Positions 15,785-61,680 of a DNA stretch of 64,000 bases are shown in pieces. Each line of letters opens with the position of its first letter. Positions within the stretch are counted from its first letter, which is position 1. This DNA comes from Candidatus Omnitrophota bacterium (GTDB taxonomy: Bacteria > Omnitrophota > Gorgyraeia > Gygaellales > Profunditerraquicolaceae). The translations under genes were made by a program, and so were the position numbers. Under the pieces are notes generated by a model. It did no database searches and was not told the DNA's origin. It saw nothing but the letters and a program-made list of their open reading frames with translations. The stretch covers positions 421,346 through 485,345 of the forward strand of contig JAQUQW010000002.1 of the NCBI GenBank assembly GCA_028716245.1, in the 5' to 3' direction.

Positions 15785-15838
15785 CACCCCGCGCTTATAA
15801 GGAATTGCGCGGGTGTGCCCTTGTGGGCAAAGGAGGCA
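15785..15838 (+). promoter_or_regulatory. Conserved double-hairpin leader motif (copy A) immediately upstream of the RBS
   Basis: 'CACCCCGCGC-ttataaggaatt-GCGCGGGTG' forms hairpin 1 and 'TGCCC-ttgt-GGGCA' forms hairpin 2, followed by 'AAGGAGG'. Related copies are at 22805 and 60605. Confidence 0.4.
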
Positions 15839-15842
15839 GGTA

Positions 15843-16676
15843 ATGAAAATAAAAATTAAACCGGCAGTATTTGTTTTAATTCTTATTCTTGCCGCGGGAA
15901 GTATCGTTGCCTATTTTTGGCAGGTGCGTCATTACAGCCGCGGAAGAATTAAAGTTTCAGGCAATATCGAAGGGGATGATGTCCGGCTTTCCTTTCGCGT
16001 ACAGGGCCAGATTCTGGATCTGCTTAGCGATGAAGGCCAAGTAGTTAAAATAGGCCAGCCGGTAGCCAGGTTAAATACTGATGAGCTGACTAAAATCCGC
16101 GATAATGCCGAAGGCGCGCTGAAAGCGGCGCAATACCAGTATTCGCTGGACAAGCTTGATTATGAACGGGCTGAAAATTTATATAAGGCCGGAGCAATAT
16201 CGATGCAACAAAGGGATGCCGCCAAGACTTTGGCCTCCGCGGATAAAGCGAATATGCAGGCGCTGCGCGCTTCTTTTGAATTAGCTGAAACCAGATTAGG
16301 TTTTGCGGAATTGGTTTCTCCGCTTAATGGTTTTGTGCTGGTCAAAAGCGCTTTAACCGGCGAGGTGGTGCAAATTGGGGCTCCGGTATTTACCGTAATT
16401 GATTTAAACAGCCTCTGGGTTACCGCTTATATCAATGAGACGGATTTAGGCAAAGTAAAACTTAATCAGGAAGCCGAAGTTGTTGCCGATACCTATCCCG
16501 GGAAAAAATACAAAGGAAGAGTTTCTTTTATTTCAAATGAGGCGGAGTTCACGCCGAAAACCATTCAGACCACGGAAGAAAGGGTAAAACTTGTTTATAG
16601 AATAAAAGTTGACGTGGATAATTCAAGCTTGGAGCTTAAACCCGGGATGCCGGCAGACGCCTATATAATCGAATAA
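15843..16676 (+). CDS. HlyD-family periplasmic adaptor (membrane fusion protein) of an ABC-2 exporter
   Basis: N-terminal TM, coiled-coil and 'biotinyl/lipoyl' hairpin 'GQVVKIGQPVARLNT'. RBS 'aaaggagg' precedes the ATG at 15843. The track ORF starting at 15813 is probably an over-extension. Confidence 0.8.
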   Translation: MKIKIKPAVFVLILILAAGSIVAYFWQVRHYSRGRIKVSGNIEGDDVRLSFRVQGQILDLLSDEGQVVKIGQPVARLNTDELTKIRDNAEGALKAAQYQYSLDKLDYERAENLYKAGAISMQQRDAAKTLASADKANMQALRASFELAETRLGFAELVSPLNGFVLVKSALTGEVVQIGAPVFTVIDLNSLWVTAYINETDLGKVKLNQEAEVVADTYPGKKYKGRVSFISNEAEFTPKTIQTTEERVKLVYRIKVDVDNSSLELKPGMPADAYIIE

Positions 16677-22185: not shown

Positions 22186-22818
22186 TTGGCTAATGAATTA
22201 AAATATCTGTCCGGAAAAGACGTTGTCGTATTAGGTATCCCGCGGGGAGGTATTATTATAGCCGCCGAAGTTGCCCGCCTGCTGCAGGCTAAATTAGATA
22301 TCGTGCTTTCCCGTAAGATAGGGGCTCCGGGCAATCCTGAACTGGCGATCGGCTCGGTTGGTGAAAATGGAAAACTTTTTCTTAATGATGGCCTGGTTTC
22401 CCGGGTAGGCGCGGATAAGAATTATATCGAATCAGAAAAAATACGGCAGTTAGCCGAGATTAAAAATCGGATCAAAAAGTGCCGGCAGATTAAGCCCAAA
22501 GTTTCTTTAGAAGGGCAAACAGTTATTGTTATTGATGATGGGATAGCAACCGGCGCGACAATGCAAGCAGCGCTTTTAGCTGCCGGCCGCCAAAAGGCGA
22601 AAAAAGTTATTGCCGCGGTTCCGGTGGCTGCTAAAGAATCCATTGTTTTGTTGGCTAATTATGCCGATGAACTGATAGTGTTAAGAGTGCCGGAGTTTTT
22701 GGGATCAATTGGGCAGTTCTACGAAAATTTTGGTCAAACTTCCGAAGGAGAAGTTTTAAGCGCGTTGAGAGAAGCGGCAGAAAAAGAAAAACAATTAGGT
22801 AAGACACCCCGCGCTTAG
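22186..22818 (+). CDS. Phosphoribosyltransferase-family protein (type I PRTase fold)
   Basis: PRPP-binding loop 'VIVIDDGIATGATMQAA'. About 210 aa. Confidence 0.7.
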   Translation: MANELKYLSGKDVVVLGIPRGGIIIAAEVARLLQAKLDIVLSRKIGAPGNPELAIGSVGENGKLFLNDGLVSRVGADKNYIESEKIRQLAEIKNRIKKCRQIKPKVSLEGQTVIVIDDGIATGATMQAALLAAGRQKAKKVIAAVPVAAKESIVLLANYADELIVLRVPEFLGSIGQFYENFGQTSEGEVLSALREAAEKEKQLGKTPRA

Positions 22819-22857
22819 CGGAATTGCGCGGGTGTTGTCTTCGTAGACAAGGAGGCC
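22805..22857 (+). promoter_or_regulatory. Conserved double-hairpin leader motif (copy B)
   Basis: 'CACCCCGCGC-ttagcggaatt-GCGCGGGTG' overlaps the PRTase stop, and 'TTGTCT-tcgt-AGACAA' is followed by 'AAGGAGG'. Hairpin 2 carries compensatory changes relative to copies A and C. Confidence 0.4.
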
Positions 22858-22860
22858 AAG

Positions 22861-52105: not shown

Positions 52106-52233
52106 GTAGGGGTATTTATGAGTGCGCGGGTGACTGCCAAGACGAAGCCCTTGCCGCGCGCAACGAAAGTGAGCACGGCGAGGTGGATTGGCAGGCAGGA
52201 CCCCGTCATAGAGAAATCATCATGGGAGGTCTT

Positions 52234-57380: not shown

Positions 57381-57386
57381 TTTCTA

Positions 57387-57540
57387 GCGGGTGGCGAGAC
57401 TTGATTCGAGCGGCATCTTAAAATTCGAGCGGGCACGGTTGCCCGCAATAAATGTTTCGGCAGAGCGAGAATTTTACCGAAGCGCAGCGAGCCACGCTGG
57501 GGCGAGCAAGCGGTGCGGCGAGAACAAGTCTCGGCAGGAT
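57387..57540 (-). repeat. ~155-nt GC-rich intergenic repeat element, copy 1 (inverted relative to copy 2)
   Basis: The reverse complement ('...tcctgccgagacttgttctcgccgcaccgcttgctcgccccagcgtggc...ttattgcgggcaaccgtgcccgctcgaatttt...gtctcgccacccgc') aligns block-for-block with 60360-60519. Confidence 0.7.
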
Positions 57541-57570
57541 CCTCTAAGTAATAAAGAAAGGTTATAAAAG

Positions 57571-58596
57571 ATGAAGAAATATAATGTGGCGGTAATCGGG
57601 GCGGGAGTTGTGGGGATTGAGATGTTGCGGGTTTTAAAGCAGCGGAATTTTCCCGTGAATACCTTAAAAGTTTTTGCCCGTTCAGCCCGCGATATAAATA
57701 TCGATGGGCAGGTTTATTCAGTTGAGCCGATTACTCCGGACGGTTTTAACGGAATCGATATCGCATTATTTGCCGGTACCGAAGGTGAGAAGGGGGCTGC
57801 GGTTAGTTACGCGCCTGAGGCGGTAAAGCGAGGCGCTGTGGTTATTGATAACGGCGCGGATTTTCGCATGGATCCCAAGGTGCCTTTAGTTGTTCCGGAA
57901 GTTAATCCCAATGATGTTAAAAAACATAAAGGAATTATCGCCAATCCTAATTGTTCGACCATCCAGATGGTGGTAGCTTTGAATCCTATCCATAAGAAGG
58001 TAGGAATCAAGAAAATTATCGTTACCACTCTGCAGGCTTCCAGCGGGGCAGGGAAAGGAGCGGTTGAGCAATTAAAAGAAGAATCAAGCTTAATTGCCCA
58101 GGGTGGATTTGAAAATATTCAAGTCAGCGTTTTAAACAAAGCTATGCCGCAACAGTTGGCTTACAATTGTTTTCCGCATATCGGCAGTTTTGTTGAGGGT
58201 GATTATACAAATGAAGAGTGGAAGCTGGTCAAGGAAACACACAAAATTATGCACGCGCCAAAGATTAAAATTTCGGCAACTACCGTGCGTGTTCCGGTCA
58301 GGACCGGGCATTCCGAATCTGTTTATATTGAAACTACTAAGCCCTTAACTGCCGAAGGAGCCAGGAAAATTTTAGCCAAGGCTCCGGGCGTTGTGCTGAT
58401 GGATGATCCTAAGAATAATTTATATCCCATGCCTAAGGATGTCGAGGGTAAGGATGAAACTTTTGTCGGCCGCATCCGCCAGGATGCCTTTAATAAAAAG
58501 GGATTGTGGCTGTGGGTAGTGGCGGATAATTTGCGTAAAGGCGCTGCCACAAATGCCGTGCAAATCGCTGAATGCCTAATTTCAAGCTCCAAATAG
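57571..58596 (+). CDS. asd: Aspartate-semialdehyde dehydrogenase
   Basis: 'VAVIGAGVVG' and the active-site 'NPNCSTIQ'. Confidence 0.85.
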   Translation: MKKYNVAVIGAGVVGIEMLRVLKQRNFPVNTLKVFARSARDINIDGQVYSVEPITPDGFNGIDIALFAGTEGEKGAAVSYAPEAVKRGAVVIDNGADFRMDPKVPLVVPEVNPNDVKKHKGIIANPNCSTIQMVVALNPIHKKVGIKKIIVTTLQASSGAGKGAVEQLKEESSLIAQGGFENIQVSVLNKAMPQQLAYNCFPHIGSFVEGDYTNEEWKLVKETHKIMHAPKIKISATTVRVPVRTGHSESVYIETTKPLTAEGARKILAKAPGVVLMDDPKNNLYPMPKDVEGKDETFVGRIRQDAFNKKGLWLWVVADNLRKGAATNAVQIAECLISSSK

Positions 58597-59327
58597 AGTA
58601 TGACGGCACGCATTATTACGGTTGGCAGGTGCAGAATGGTAAAAAGGTAAGTTACCGGGCAAACAAAACCATCCAGCATGTTTTAGAGCAGGTCCTTAAG
58701 AAAATCCTCCAGGAAGAGATTAAGCTCACCGTTGCCGGACGCACGGATTCAGGAGTGCACGCTCTTTCCCAGGTTGCTAATTTTAAAAGTTATTCAAAAA
58801 TGCCTCTGGCAAGATTGCGCTGGGCGATAAATTGCCTTCTGCCTGAAGATATAAAGGTAACGCGGATTCAAAAGGTGGGTTTAGATTTTAACAGCCGGTT
58901 TTGCGCCAAATCTAAGATTTATCGTTATACGATTTTAAATCGAAAATATTCTTCGCCTCTGTCGGCAGGCAGGGTATATTTTTTTCATCATCCTCTGGAT
59001 GCAAGATTAATGTGCAGTGAGGCCAAATTTCTTCTTGGCCGGCATAATTTTAAAGCTTTTCAGGCTGCTGAAGACAGGCAGAGGAATCCTGTGCGTACCA
59101 TTAAGCGTATCAGGATCATCAAGGATAAAGATTTTTTGTATTTTGACATTGAAGCAGACAGTTTTTTGTATAATATGGTCAGAAATATCGCCGGAACCTT
59201 GCTAGAGATTGGCAGGGGAAGGTTTCCAAAAGGGAGTATGCGTAAGATCCTTAAATCAGGCGACCGTTCGCTTGCCGGGCCGACTTTGCCGGCAAAAGGA
59301 TTATGCTTAGTTAAGGTAAAATATTAA
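58572..59327 (+). CDS. truA: tRNA pseudouridine(38-40) synthase TruA
   Basis: 'IEYDGTHYYGWQVQ' and 'AGRTDSGVHA' (catalytic Asp). Confidence 0.85.
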   Translation: MPNFKLQIEYDGTHYYGWQVQNGKKVSYRANKTIQHVLEQVLKKILQEEIKLTVAGRTDSGVHALSQVANFKSYSKMPLARLRWAINCLLPEDIKVTRIQKVGLDFNSRFCAKSKIYRYTILNRKYSSPLSAGRVYFFHHPLDARLMCSEAKFLLGRHNFKAFQAAEDRQRNPVRTIKRIRIIKDKDFLYFDIEADSFLYNMVRNIAGTLLEIGRGRFPKGSMRKILKSGDRSLAGPTLPAKGLCLVKVKY

Positions 59328-59437
59328 TAAACAGAGTCGAAACAGTTTCGAATCTAATCGGGAAATAGGGTACATATAAGTTAAAAAGCAAAAATTTTAT
59401 TTGACTTAATTTATAATTCTGTTATAATTATTTTTCT

Positions 59438-59875
59438 ATGAAAAAGACATATACAGCTAAGCCGGAAGACATTAAAATGAAGTGGTATATCGCTGATGCC
59501 AAAGGCCAGACCTTGGGAAGGCTGGCAGCCAGGATTGCCACTATCTTAAGAGGCAAGCATAAGCCGATTTTTACTCCGCATCTGGATACTGGTGACGGGG
59601 TAATCGTGATTAATGCCAGCCAGATTAAGGTTACCGGGCGTAAACTCAAGCAAAAGGTTTATCGCCGATATTCCGGGTATCCGGGAGGCTTACGCGAAAT
59701 AAAATTAGAGGTGCTTTTAGCTAAAAAGCCGGCGACAGTTATGCATTTAGCCGTGCAGAGGATGCTGCCTTCAGGCCCGTTAGGAAGGGATTTAATTAAA
59801 AAGTTAAGGGTTTTTGCCGATGATAAACATGATTTAACCGGTATAAAACCGATTGTTTTGGAGGCCAAGAAATAA
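59438..59875 (+). CDS. rplM: 50S ribosomal protein L13
   Basis: 'KWYIADAKGQTLGRLA' and 'GDGVIVINA'. Confidence 0.95.
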   Translation: MKKTYTAKPEDIKMKWYIADAKGQTLGRLAARIATILRGKHKPIFTPHLDTGDGVIVINASQIKVTGRKLKQKVYRRYSGYPGGLREIKLEVLLAKKPATVMHLAVQRMLPSGPLGRDLIKKLRVFADDKHDLTGIKPIVLEAKK

Positions 59876-60270
59876 TGAGTGAGTCAACTAAATATATAGC
59901 ATTGGGTAGGCGTAAGGAATCAACTGCCAGGGTGCGTATGGAACCGGGCAGCGGCTTGATTACTATCAATGGCCGTCCTTTTGAGAAATATTTCCTGCGT
60001 GAAACAGACCGGATTATTGTTTTACAGCCTTTGGCGCTTACGGAAAGCGCAGGTAAGTTTAATATCGCTGCCAGGCTCGCTGGTGGTGGATTAACCGGCC
60101 AGGCCGGCGCTCTGCGCCTGGGTATTGCCCGCGCGCTTTTAAACGCGGATGAAAATTTTAAGGCGATATTCCGTAAGAATGGGTATTTAACGCGTGATCC
60201 GCGAATGAAGGAGCGTAAGAAATACGGCCAGAAGGGCGCGCGCAAACGCTTCCAGTGGACAAAGAGGTAA
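59875..60270 (+). CDS. rpsI: 30S ribosomal protein S9
   Basis: 'GRRKESTARV' and 'GGGLTGQAGALRLGIARAL'. Terminator 'aaaaagtcccgctgatgaagcgggattttttg' at 60301-60332. Confidence 0.95.
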   Translation: MSESTKYIALGRRKESTARVRMEPGSGLITINGRPFEKYFLRETDRIIVLQPLALTESAGKFNIAARLAGGGLTGQAGALRLGIARALLNADENFKAIFRKNGYLTRDPRMKERKKYGQKGARKRFQWTKR

Positions 60271-60359
60271 GCGATAAATAAATTTAAAATATAAGTTTGT
60301 AAAAAGTCCCGCTGATGAAGCGGGATTTTTTGTTTGTACAGCATTAAGCTCTACGCGGG

Positions 60360-60519
60360 TCCTGTCAGGCCTTGTCTCTCGCAGCACCGCTCGATTTTCC
60401 CCAGCGTGGAAAATCTTCGCTTCGGCAAAAATTCTCGCTCTGCCGGGAGATTTATTGCGGGCAACCCTGCCCGCTCGAATTTTTGAGATGCTCACTCGAG
60501 TCCAAGGCTTGCCACCCGC
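60360..60519 (+). repeat. ~160-nt GC-rich intergenic repeat element, copy 2
   Basis: 'tcctgtcaggccttgtctctcgcagcaccgctcgattttccccagcgtgga...ttattgcgggcaaccctgcccgctcgaattttt...gccacccgc' pairs with the reverse complement of 57387-57540. It contains an internal hairpin 'gcgggcaaccctgcccgc'. Confidence 0.7.
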
Positions 60520-60604
60520 GTTAAGATTTGAGCCGCTGAATTTTATGTCCCGTCGAGAAAAATCCTTGACGGAAGATTGATTTTATTCTAAGATGTTTAA
60601 ATTA

Positions 60605-60639
60605 GGGAATTGCGCGGGTGTGCCCTTGCGGGCAAGGAG
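60605..60639 (+). promoter_or_regulatory. Conserved leader motif (copy C, hairpin-2 half) upstream of argC
   Basis: 'GGAATTGCGCGGGTGTGCCCTTGCGGGCAAGGAG' matches copies A and B from the loop of hairpin 1 onwards. The 5' arm 'CACCCCGCGC' is absent. Confidence 0.4.
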
Positions 60640-60645
60640 AGTCCA

Positions 60646-61680
60646 ATGATTATCAATGTTGGAATAATCGGAGCCACCGGTCATACTGGAGAGGTTCTTA
60701 TTGAACTTTTGCTTAGCCATCCCAATGTTAAGATTACCCGCCTTTACAATAGCGGAAAAAGTAGCCAAGGGGCTTGCGTTATTTCCGATATTTTTCCAAA
60801 ATTTAAGAAGAGACTGGACCTGGTTTGCACAAAACCGGATTGGGCCCAAATTAAAAAAGATTGTGACCTGATTTTTTTGGCCCTGCCGCATACCATATCG
60901 ATGAAATTCGCGCCTAAACTTTTGAGTTTAGGCAAGAGGGTCATTGACTTAAGTGCCGACTATAGGATTAAAAATCAGGCGCTTTATGAAAAATTTTATA
61001 AGATAAGCCATCTGGATAAGGCCAATTTAAAACAAGCAGTTTACGGGTTGCCGGAATTAAATAGAGCAAAGATTAAAACCGCAAAACTCTTGGCCAATCC
61101 CGGATGTTATCCGACTTCGGCGATTCTTGCGCTTGCCCCATTGCTGGCGGTAAATTTAGTGGATACGGATTCGATTATTATCGACGCTAAATCCGGAGTA
61201 AGCGGGGCGGGGAAAAAACTGGAAAAGGAATATTTATTTTCTGAGATACAGGGAGATTTTCGGGCTTACAAAGTTAACGTGCATCAACATTCGCCGGAAA
61301 TAAACCAGAGTCTCTCTAAGCTATCCGGAAAAAAGATTGAGGTGGTATTTGTGCCGCATCTTTTACCCATTGAAAGGGGCATACTTTCGACGATTTATCT
61401 TAAGAAGTCTCCGGGAGCAAAACTTAAAGTAAACAGCGTAGTAGAATTATATAAAAAATTCTATAAGAATGAGCCGTTTATCCGGATCAAACCGGATGGT
61501 GTTTTTCCCCGGATCAAGGATGTGGTTAAGACTAATTTTTGCGACATTGGGGTCAAGGATTTTGGTAAAACAATTATTGTCATTTGCGCCATCGATAATT
61601 TATTAAAAGGAGCATCAGCTCAAGCAGTACAGAATATGAATATTATGTATAAGCTGCCTGAGACAGCGGGATTATTATGA
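60646..61680 (+). CDS. argC: N-acetyl-gamma-glutamyl-phosphate reductase
   Basis: 'VGIIGATGHTG' and the active-site 'ANPGCYPTS'. The start at 60646 follows 'aaggaga'. Confidence 0.9.
   Translation: MIINVGIIGATGHTGEVLIELLLSHPNVKITRLYNSGKSSQGACVISDIFPKFKKRLDLVCTKPDWAQIKKDCDLIFLALPHTISMKFAPKLLSLGKRVIDLSADYRIKNQALYEKFYKISHLDKANLKQAVYGLPELNRAKIKTAKLLANPGCYPTSAILALAPLLAVNLVDTDSIIIDAKSGVSGAGKKLEKEYLFSEIQGDFRAYKVNVHQHSPEINQSLSKLSGKKIEVVFVPHLLPIERGILSTIYLKKSPGAKLKVNSVVELYKKFYKNEPFIRIKPDGVFPRIKDVVKTNFCDIGVKDFGKTIIVICAIDNLLKGASAQAVQNMNIMYKLPETAGLL

Follow-up and report, generated by a model that had tools for sequence, protein, structure and literature searches.

A dispersed, structured and probably mobile ~165-nt intergenic element in Omnitrophota

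We analyzed a 64-kb stretch of DNA from a Candidatus Omnitrophota bacterium (contig JAQUQW010000002.1), which is referred to below as the window. Two of its intergenic spacers, one between leuB and asd and the other between rpsI and argC, contain two independent copies (A and B) of a dispersed ~165-nt Omnitrophota element for which we found no prior description. Compensatory changes across the family point to a branched RNA fold, and the same spacers are filled in some relatives and empty in others. On the basis of these sequence comparisons, we propose that the element is a dispersed, probably mobile, structured RNA module that would act in cis on neighboring transcripts, and we give this reading a probability of approximately 0.55. 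The pair A and B is not a functional unit around the asd-truA-rplM-rpsI genes that lie between the copies.

Two copies of a dispersed element

The two copies in the window were matched by a covariance model of the family as follows.
57386-57545, + strand: copy A of the ~165-nt family; 173.8 bits, E = 1e-47
60354-60520, − strand: copy B of the ~165-nt family; 150.6 bits, E = 6e-41

The first-pass annotation of the window had described the two spacers as GC-rich, non-coding reverse complements of each other, and this description holds. In a MAFFT global alignment, A and B are reverse complements with a mean column identity of 84% across ~165 nt. The longest gap-free block comprises 56 nt at 93% (57420-57475 versus 60428-60483), and the longest exact run is 18 nt. 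All four strings quoted in that annotation were found in the spacers. The GC content is 0.59 for A and 0.56 for B versus 0.43 for the whole window, and the open reading frames overlapping the copies were judged to be spurious only. A profile built from the pair matched the window at A and B alone (E = 3e-49 and 1e-56), with the next-best match at E = 3.8. Therefore, the similarity is far above chance and does not reduce to short low-complexity GC runs. The window holds no full copy besides these two.

Copy A is located 6 nt past the leuB stop codon and 25 nt ahead of the asd start codon, and it runs in the same direction as both genes. The outermost stem of this copy shows slight decay, with UCCUC in place of CCCGC on the 3′ strand. 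Copy B, antisense to rpsI and argC, is flanked by the terminator of rpsI and the promoter of argC. The predicted folds have energies of −66.5 kcal/mol for A (z = −3.95) and −63.5 kcal/mol for B.

Other DNA was fetched as contigs or loci, which are numbered L001-L069. A scan of metagenome contigs with two conserved blocks yielded 62 stretches. The element is clearly present in 59 of them, and 22 core bases of these 59 copies are fixed by the retrieval pattern. A set of 51 non-redundant copies was aligned, and a covariance model (R1) was then built. A search of all of the fetched DNA with R1 gave 81 matches in 62 contigs, and approximately 20 of the 81 do not fit the retrieval pattern. A scan of species-representative genomes, for which the pattern was too specific, gave one true copy (L002) and one chance match (L001). 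The L002 copy, from a metagenome-assembled genome (MAG) of Candidatus Omnitrophota, is full and lies between two genes on the strand opposite to it. All of the named hosts, a handful of named MAGs, are Omnitrophota (the window, L002, L060, and L064); L060 and L064 carry proteins named by NCBI as Omnitrophota, and the Asd of the window is identical to an NCBI protein of a Candidatus Omnitrophica MAG. The viral contigs of IMG/VR contained one chance match inside a coding region and no copy.

A search of the whole window with Rfam 15 returned nothing at the gathering threshold. At E ≤ 10, the two spacers gave scattered weak matches with less than half of the gathering scores, none of which spanned the element, and no relevant family was matched at either spacer. 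Literature searches by phylum and by core sequence found no published description of the element, and no report of non-coding RNA families in Omnitrophota was found.

The window contains two full copies and one short relative in 64 kb, and the sister loci contain 0-1 full copies per 20 kb. In many contigs, two or three copies are grouped within a few kb, in any relative orientation. Such pairs are in tandem in L055, L024, and L037, divergent in L053, L009, L008, L045, L049, and L058 as well as in L010 and L064 (22-32 nt apart), and convergent in the window. The spacing between paired copies ranges from 22 nt to 5 kb.

Fold and covariation

In the predicted fold, a terminal stem of ~30 bp (P0, P1a, P1b, and P1c) closes a three-way junction with two arms. 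In copy A, these parts are placed as follows.
57387-57417, + strand: 5′ strand of the terminal stem, pairing with 57512-57544
57419-57476, + strand: arm P2-P3, closing a variable loop
57482-57511, + strand: arm P5-P4, with the conserved 7-nt loop ACGCUGG at 57494-57500

The terminal stem of copy A consists of P0 (57387-57391), P1a (57392-57403), P1b (57406-57411), and P1c (57412-57417), and its P1b is UCGAGC/GCGAG with a tandem G.A. In the first arm, the P2 strand UAAAAUUC(GA)GC (57419-57430) pairs with GC(GA)GAAUUUUA (57465-57476). P2 runs via the tandem G.A and a G-C/C-G step into a conserved 9-nt bulge, GGGCANGGU in the family and GGGCACGGU at 57431-57439 in copy A, and then into P3 (UGCCC at 57440-57444 with CGGCA at 57458-57462). 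In the second arm, P5 is formed by GC (57482-57483) and GC (57510-57511), and P4 is formed by GCGAGCC (57487-57493) and GGCGAGC (57501-57507). Nearly all copies have the module CGAGC/GCGAG with a tandem G.A in P1b and P2, and many, copy A included, also have it in P4.

The first covariation test applied a hand-drawn structure to a MAFFT alignment that had been made without regard to structure. Under this structure, 91% of the cells pair, and when the partners are slid by 1-3 columns, the value is 32-48%. Changes on both sides were found in 31 of the 50 pairs versus 15.0 ± 1.7 after shuffling, and none of 500 shuffles reached the observed value. The fold was revised after the divergent R1 copies had been added. 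In the revised fold, 44 of 53 pairs are changed on both sides (24.8 ± 2.3 when shuffled), and the covariation score is 0.300 versus 0.100 for shuffled alignments. In both tests, none of 500 shuffles matched the observed value on any of five measures. A model-based alignment favors the helices of its model, but not P3 or the pseudoknot described below. P3 did not form part of the model used for the alignment; therefore, fitting cannot account for the support for this helix. The compensatory changes exceed both the shuffled and the slid controls, which is the general requirement for a structured RNA. The suggestion of the first-pass annotation that the spacers encode a structured RNA of an unrecognized family fits much of the evidence, namely the strong covariation, the many copies, and the absence from Rfam; a leader or small RNA specific for asd is not supported.

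Covariation occurs in 22 of 26 pairs of the terminal-stem helices across the family, and all of the pairs in P2 (8/8) and P3 (5/5) are changed on both sides. AAAAUUC/GAAUUUU in P2 covaries to CUUCAUCC/GGAUGAAG, GGCC/GGCC, and other forms, and UGCCC/GGGCA in P3 covaries to UCAC/GUGA, CCCGC/GCGGG, and GUCCC/GGGAC. The P4 stem is freely replaced, with covariation in 7/7 pairs, and its loop ACGCUGG is conserved; P4 of copy B is GAUUUUCC/GGAAAAUC, which is fully compensated relative to copy A. A separate observation concerns the copy at 1031-1214 of L035, in which an extra 18-nt hairpin, CCCUGCCAAAGGCAGGG, replaces the 3′ end of the 5′ strand of P2. Therefore, the P2 arm tolerates an insertion at this position.

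Local pairings were also considered. The internal hairpin gcgggcaacc(c/g)tgcccgc of the first-pass annotation can be formed in nearly all copies; however, it does not covary, and its 3′ half covaries with a partner farther downstream. This hairpin, GGGCA-NGGU-UGCCC on the folded strand, is also the minimum free energy choice for single sequences, and it breaks once its 3′ strand changes. Another local hairpin around GGCAGAGCGAGAAUUUU, seen in single-sequence folds, was rejected in favor of the covarying long-range pairing of P2.

The folded strand can be recognized from the pairs themselves. Only one strand has the tandem G.A pairs and a conserved U.G wobble (51 of 75 copies), which mark it as the folded strand. 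This strand is also the more stable in 64 of 65 copies (−71.3 versus −60.7 kcal/mol).

The conserved bulge and the conserved loop may pair with each other as a pseudoknot. The candidate pairing joins columns 74-76 with columns 152-154; the first pair is G-U in 64 copies, G-C in 3, and A-U in 2, the second is G-C in 68 and C-G in 2, and the third is C-G in 70.

Gene context, movement and conservation of the copies

The copies are always intergenic and usually fit tightly, 0-30 nt from gene ends. Between co-directional genes (n = 39), 23 copies are sense and 16 are antisense. Sense copies end at a median of ~20 nt ahead of the next start codon, and the genes downstream of them include asd, argG, lysA, argC, tmk (three loci), tgt (three loci), trxB, crcB, and mfd. 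For antisense copies, the median distance from the 3′ end to the stop codon of the gene before it is ~10 nt. The 100 neighboring proteins encoded within 2.5 kb match 117 Pfam families, and the commonest family occurs in three of them. Upstream of the copies, there are no conserved −35/−10 positions, and the region from −25 to −6 is merely AT-rich. On the antisense strand of copy B (60457-60484, + strand), a GC hairpin, GCGGGCAACCCUGCCCGC, is followed by UCGAAUUUUU, with an equivalent in all copies. A simple scan labels this arrangement as terminator-like, and it may be relevant where a copy is antisense inside an operon.

The termini AGCGGGU...ACCCGCU and the following ~25 nt pair as P0-P1. 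The AT-rich flanking runs mirror one another (UUUA-GCGGG...CCCGC-UAAA), the upstream run belonging to the stem, and the position at ±1 is AU in 28 cases, UA in 8, GC in 4, and CG in 2. Because this position also appears as U...A, G...C, and C...G, it behaves as a covarying base pair and not as a direct repeat. The conserved U.G, the tandem G.A, and the covariation in P0-P1 point to a folded single strand rather than to two protein-binding ends. Both sides carry TA in 26 of 60 copies versus 16.6 expected.

Related genomes provide a comparison of filled and empty sites. The order fab genes-leuCD-leuB-asd-truA-rplM-rpsI is common to four related loci (L066-L069); the arg genes follow rpsI in L066 and L069, other genes follow it in L067, and L068 ends at rpsI. 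The identity of Asd to that of the window is 97% in L066, 95% in L067, and 89% in L069. The spacers are occupied as follows.
leuB/asd spacer: window, copy A (+); L066, inverted ~90-nt hairpin with the same termini; L067, unrelated palindrome; L069, 15 nt, empty
rpsI/argC spacer: window, copy B (−); L066, empty; L069, another GC-rich element and a copy (+)
rpsI/argC spacer in further loci: L006, copy (−); L055, copy (+)
fabD/fabG spacer: window, S element; L066, empty; L069, empty
52125-52205 of the window, + strand: S element, ~80-nt GC-rich hairpin with the family termini GCGGGUGAC...CAGGACCC, in the fabD/fabG spacer

L055 and L024 have filled argF/argG and argH/lysA spacers; the corresponding spacers of L066 and L069 are short, and R1 finds no copy there. 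Two "mini" copies keep P0-P1 only. Over 78 nt, the S element matches positions 8875-8968 of L066 with 100% identity; there, the sequence occupies the leuB/asd spacer in the opposite orientation, and the coding DNA flanking the S copies differs between the window and L066 genomes. This identity at different loci of sister genomes is the clearest sign of recent movement. The S element emerged from reading the GC-rich spacers; a search of the window based on the termini gave, besides copy B, chance matches in coding sequences only. The MITE-like (miniature inverted-repeat transposable element) character suggested by the first-pass annotation is thus supported by many copies and by gain and loss at the same spacers, apart from its composite-element part.

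Two features near copy B lie outside the element.
60301-60331, readable on both strands: intrinsic terminator of rpsI (A-tract/hairpin/T-tract), ~25 nt from the 3′ end of copy B
60566-60594, + strand: promoter-like site of argC, TTGACG-17-TAAGAT

The terminator is kept in L066, L069, and L006, with or without the element, and the promoter-like block CGAGAAAAA(T/A)CCTTGACGGAAGAT is also found in L055, L066, and L069, whether the element is present or absent. Apart from the argC site, a generic promoter scan found no promoter-like site adjoining A or B.

Other inserts were noticed in the same gene cluster. Unrelated palindromic inserts, such as UGCCGUCAUUCUGAGGAGUCCCGCCGUUGGCGGGACGACGAAGAAUCU, occupy 9872-9990 of L067/L068 (leuB/asd) and 4350-4480 of L067 (fabD/fabG). 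It appears that the short intergenic gaps in this conserved cluster are hot spots for small structured inserts of several kinds. Past rpsI, positions 13189-21044 of L067 contain mostly uncharacterized genes (DUF6338, radical SAM, DUF1016/YhcG, and Bro-N) instead of the arg operon, and this block looks like an island inserted at the spacer that holds copy B in the window.

The conservation of resident copies was examined in contig pairs sharing the same downstream gene, with third-codon figures valid for gap-free pairs only; values near 0.3 are frame-shift artefacts and were disregarded.
L051/L054: element 98%, coding DNA 90%, third codon positions 74%
L023/L009: element 98%, coding DNA 91%, third codon positions 81%
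L057/L023: element 97%, coding DNA 92%, third codon positions 84%
L004/L005: element 95%, coding DNA 77%, third codon positions not valid (gapped pair)

Copies upstream of tmk are 67-70% identical and retain every helix. Same-locus copies change much less than the neighboring synonymous sites, which is not expected of a neutral resident insertion. We infer that the resident copies are under selection.

Possible function and comparison with known systems

A two-part explanation would account for these properties. The element would spread as a non-autonomous unit whose shared termini are recognized in trans, and a resident copy would be retained by selection because the co-transcribed, folded RNA acts in cis on its neighbors. 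A sense copy could provide a stable, structured 5′ boundary for the next cistron or a processing site specific for double strands. An antisense copy would present the complementary long hairpin, with the GC hairpin and U-run, as a 3′-end barrier or a weak terminator. Omnitrophota is a large phylum known almost entirely from MAGs, and the element is abundant and easily modeled there, with an unusually well-supported fold. It joins two features that are normally apart, namely the insertion polymorphism of a MITE on the one hand and, on the other, the branched, constrained core and the locus-level conservation of a functional RNA. If the fold does act on adjacent transcripts, it would represent phylum-wide operon punctuation carried by a mobile module. 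The covariance model allows annotators to mask GC-rich spacers in Omnitrophota MAGs, and the element can serve as a marker for strain-level comparison.

Several observations weigh against this explanation. Approximately 40% of the copies are antisense to the operon yet as intact as the sense copies, which is awkward for a purely sense-RNA function. The conserved junction, bulge, and loop exceed the needs of a nuclease target or a stability hairpin. The invariance of the core is overstated for the 59 copies whose retrieval pattern fixed 22 of its bases, and the variation in the pseudoknot is thin, as the two copies that change from G-C to C-G may represent a single event. With regard to mobility, the 25 commonest of the 117 Pfam families include no transposase, integrase, or reverse transcriptase, no flanking direct repeat of at least 3 nt rises above the permutation background, and the filled and empty spacers are too diverged to fix the exact boundaries of insertion.

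The core may do something further, in a catalytic, ligand-binding, or protein-binding role. A tentative extension, which we consider doubtful at present, is that the three-way junction, the three tandem G.A modules, the invariant bulge, and the ACGCUGG loop, which probably docks on that bulge, form the active part of a new functional RNA class. The core could, for example, be a self-processing "punctuation" ribozyme that would cut polycistronic transcripts beside start codons, or an RNA that would take part in its own mobilization. Catalysis by the core, or its binding of a ligand or protein, would make this a new RNA class.

A purely selfish non-autonomous mobile element of the MITE or foldback type would need its fold only for propagating itself through a single-stranded DNA or RNA intermediate, without benefit to the host. 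We consider this reading unlikely. The presence or absence and the flipping of copies at the same spacers, the identity of the S element at different loci in two genomes, the deletion derivatives that retain the termini only, the differing interiors with common termini, the integrity of copies in either orientation to host genes, and the excess of TA at both ends all agree with it. However, same-locus copies change far less than nearby synonymous sites. Copies within a genome have diverged, and homogenization by gene conversion looks weak in view of the 84% identity between A and B. The element is GC-rich, unlike most bacterial MITEs, which are AT-rich (PMC2229807). In addition, no target-site duplication of at least 3 nt is present, the ±1 flank acts as a base pair, and no partner transposase was seen among the most frequent Pfam families of the 100 neighboring proteins.

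The copies could also be multi-copy genes for a discrete trans-acting RNA, of the ribonucleoprotein or small RNA type, with its own promoter or cut from longer transcripts. Its complex conserved fold, the invariant junction, bulge, and loop nucleotides with a possible pseudoknot, and the purifying selection on resident copies would suit such a gene, as would the AT-rich 5′ flanks with −10-like sequences and the terminator hairpin after copy B and a few others. However, no −35/−10 occurs at a fixed upstream distance, and the −10-like sequences abut AGCGGG, so that the start site would fall inside P0, which covaries together with its flanking pair. Many copies are wedged 1-10 nt between opposite-strand genes with no room for a promoter or terminator, and most copies lack a terminator and lead directly into a ribosome-binding site. 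The terminator after copy B belongs to rpsI and is present in relatives without the element. We regard a discrete RNA gene as improbable on these grounds.

Copy A lies in the 5′ region of asd, other copies precede argG, lysA, and argC, and the complex conserved core resembles an aptamer, as would be seen in a gene-specific cis-regulatory leader (a riboswitch or protein-binding attenuator) for asd, arg, lys, and other amino-acid genes. The diversity of the downstream genes, with no Pfam family in more than three neighboring proteins, and the antisense orientation of 16 of the 39 copies between co-directional genes make this very improbable. Close relatives have no element in their asd, argG, lysA, and argC spacers; together with the gene context, the empty asd spacers exclude an asd-specific leader. 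Moreover, the conserved structure does not include the ribosome-binding site, which was not seen to take part in any alternative pairing.

The bracket readings raised by the first-pass annotation, namely inversion of the asd-truA-rplM-rpsI segment by two inverted copies 2.8 kb apart or a composite element, are scarcely credible. L066, L067, and L069 have these genes in the same order and on the same strands, even where both copies are missing. The enclosed genes belong to the core housekeeping set, the exact matches between A and B do not exceed the 18 nt noted above, and pairs or single copies elsewhere have arbitrary geometry (single, tandem, divergent, or convergent), which makes the convergent pair an accident of two independent insertions.

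The known repeats that resemble the element include Correia/NEMIS of Neisseria and ERIC/IRU of enterobacteria. Cleavage of the RNA stem-loop of the Correia/NEMIS repeat by RNase III is proposed to regulate adjacent transcripts, and the ERIC repeats of Yersinia are co-transcribed with their neighbors and alter mRNA stability (PMC2229807). Similar to these repeats, the Omnitrophota element is <200 bp, non-coding, intergenic, and present in many copies in either orientation; its termini pair into a long stem, and filled and empty sites differ between relatives. Co-transcription with neighbors is listed as a further likeness and is presumed for the Omnitrophota element. In contrast to these repeats, it is GC-rich although its host genome is AT-rich, lacks a demonstrable target-site duplication, and possesses a three-way junction interior with covarying helices, an invariant bulge and loop, and a possible pseudoknot. 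Its resident copies are conserved beyond the synonymous rate. Among the properties of bacterial MITEs (PMC2229807), it has the small size (<200 bp), non-coding nature, many copies, terminal inverted repeats, and insertion polymorphism between relatives; A+T-richness is lacking, and an autonomous partner with a transposase was not seen in a search confined to the neighbors of the copies. No sequence similarity was found between the element and Correia/NEMIS or ERIC/IRU.

The bcr repeats of the Bacillus cereus group are a class of ~155-170 bp with predicted stable RNA folds and inferred mobility. YPAL/RU-2 of Yersinia is 168 bp long and not AT-rich, has predicted stable RNA folds and internal inverted repeats, and shows target-site duplications of 3-26 bp; its recent mobility was inferred from filled and empty sites (PMC2229807). 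The Omnitrophota element resembles both in its size, its predicted fold, and the inference of mobility from filled and empty sites. Unlike YPAL, it shows no duplication and pairs to the very ends, with a covarying flanking pair. REP/BIME/REPIN sequences have proposed roles in transcription termination and in protection of mRNA 3′ ends (PMC3733652). They are likewise GC-rich extragenic palindromes that often occur as inverted pairs, and the frequent 5′-to-5′ pairs of the present element recall REP doublets. However, REPs are simple hairpins of 20-40 bp with a GTAG or CGTC tag, whereas the Omnitrophota element is 4-8 times longer, branched, and without a tag. Neither a RAYT-like gene nor a Y1 transposase family appeared among the 25 commonest Pfam families of the neighboring proteins, to which this search was confined.

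The intercistronic RNase III signals of phage T7 are ~60 nt long, unbranched, all in the sense orientation, and fixed in one genome. They share with the Omnitrophota element a repeated, conserved, irregular double-stranded structure placed tens of nt before the next ribosome-binding site. They punctuate polycistronic RNA, and by analogy the Omnitrophota element may do likewise. In contrast to them, it is polymorphic between relatives, branched, and present in both orientations. HEARO and omega-RNA adjoin IscB or TnpB genes and carry a variable guide. The many copies per genome, the elaborate conserved fold, and the association with mobility are similar; however, no IscB or TnpB gene was seen beside the Omnitrophota copies, and there is no Rfam match. 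An integron attC site was also considered and rejected; the ends are UUUAGCGGG...CCCGCUAAA and not RYYYAAC...GTTRRRY, and the copies lie in housekeeping operons in both orientations.

Two other types of small element were noticed during this work. A ~60-nt two-hairpin leader occurs at 15786-15843 and 22806-22860 of the window, in a 5′-truncated form at 60603-60646, and at 11785-11842 of L066. It consists of ACACCCCGCGC-loop-GCGCGGGUGU, then GCCCUUGUGGGC, which covaries to GUCUUCGUAGAC, and then AAGGAGG, and it stands upstream of three unrelated genes, argC among them, with its end 6-8 nt from their ATG. It is absent upstream of argC in L069 and L055 and has no Rfam match. It looks like a small movable cassette with a ribosome-binding site or an unrecognized leader motif.

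The other type is a second family of GC-rich structured elements of 210-270 nt, represented by L028 79-295, L023 636-895, and L069 12696-12915. Further matches are present in L006, L017, L018, L021, L027, L035, L038, L051, L054, and others, and none is in the window. The L028 copy folds at −74.5 kcal/mol (z = −5.65), and some copies, that of L028 included, end in AAAUGAA(C/U)CUG...CAGAUUCAUUU. This second family has modules of the UUCGAGC/GCGAG type, and its members often lie 5′-to-5′ at ~20 nt from a ~165-nt copy.

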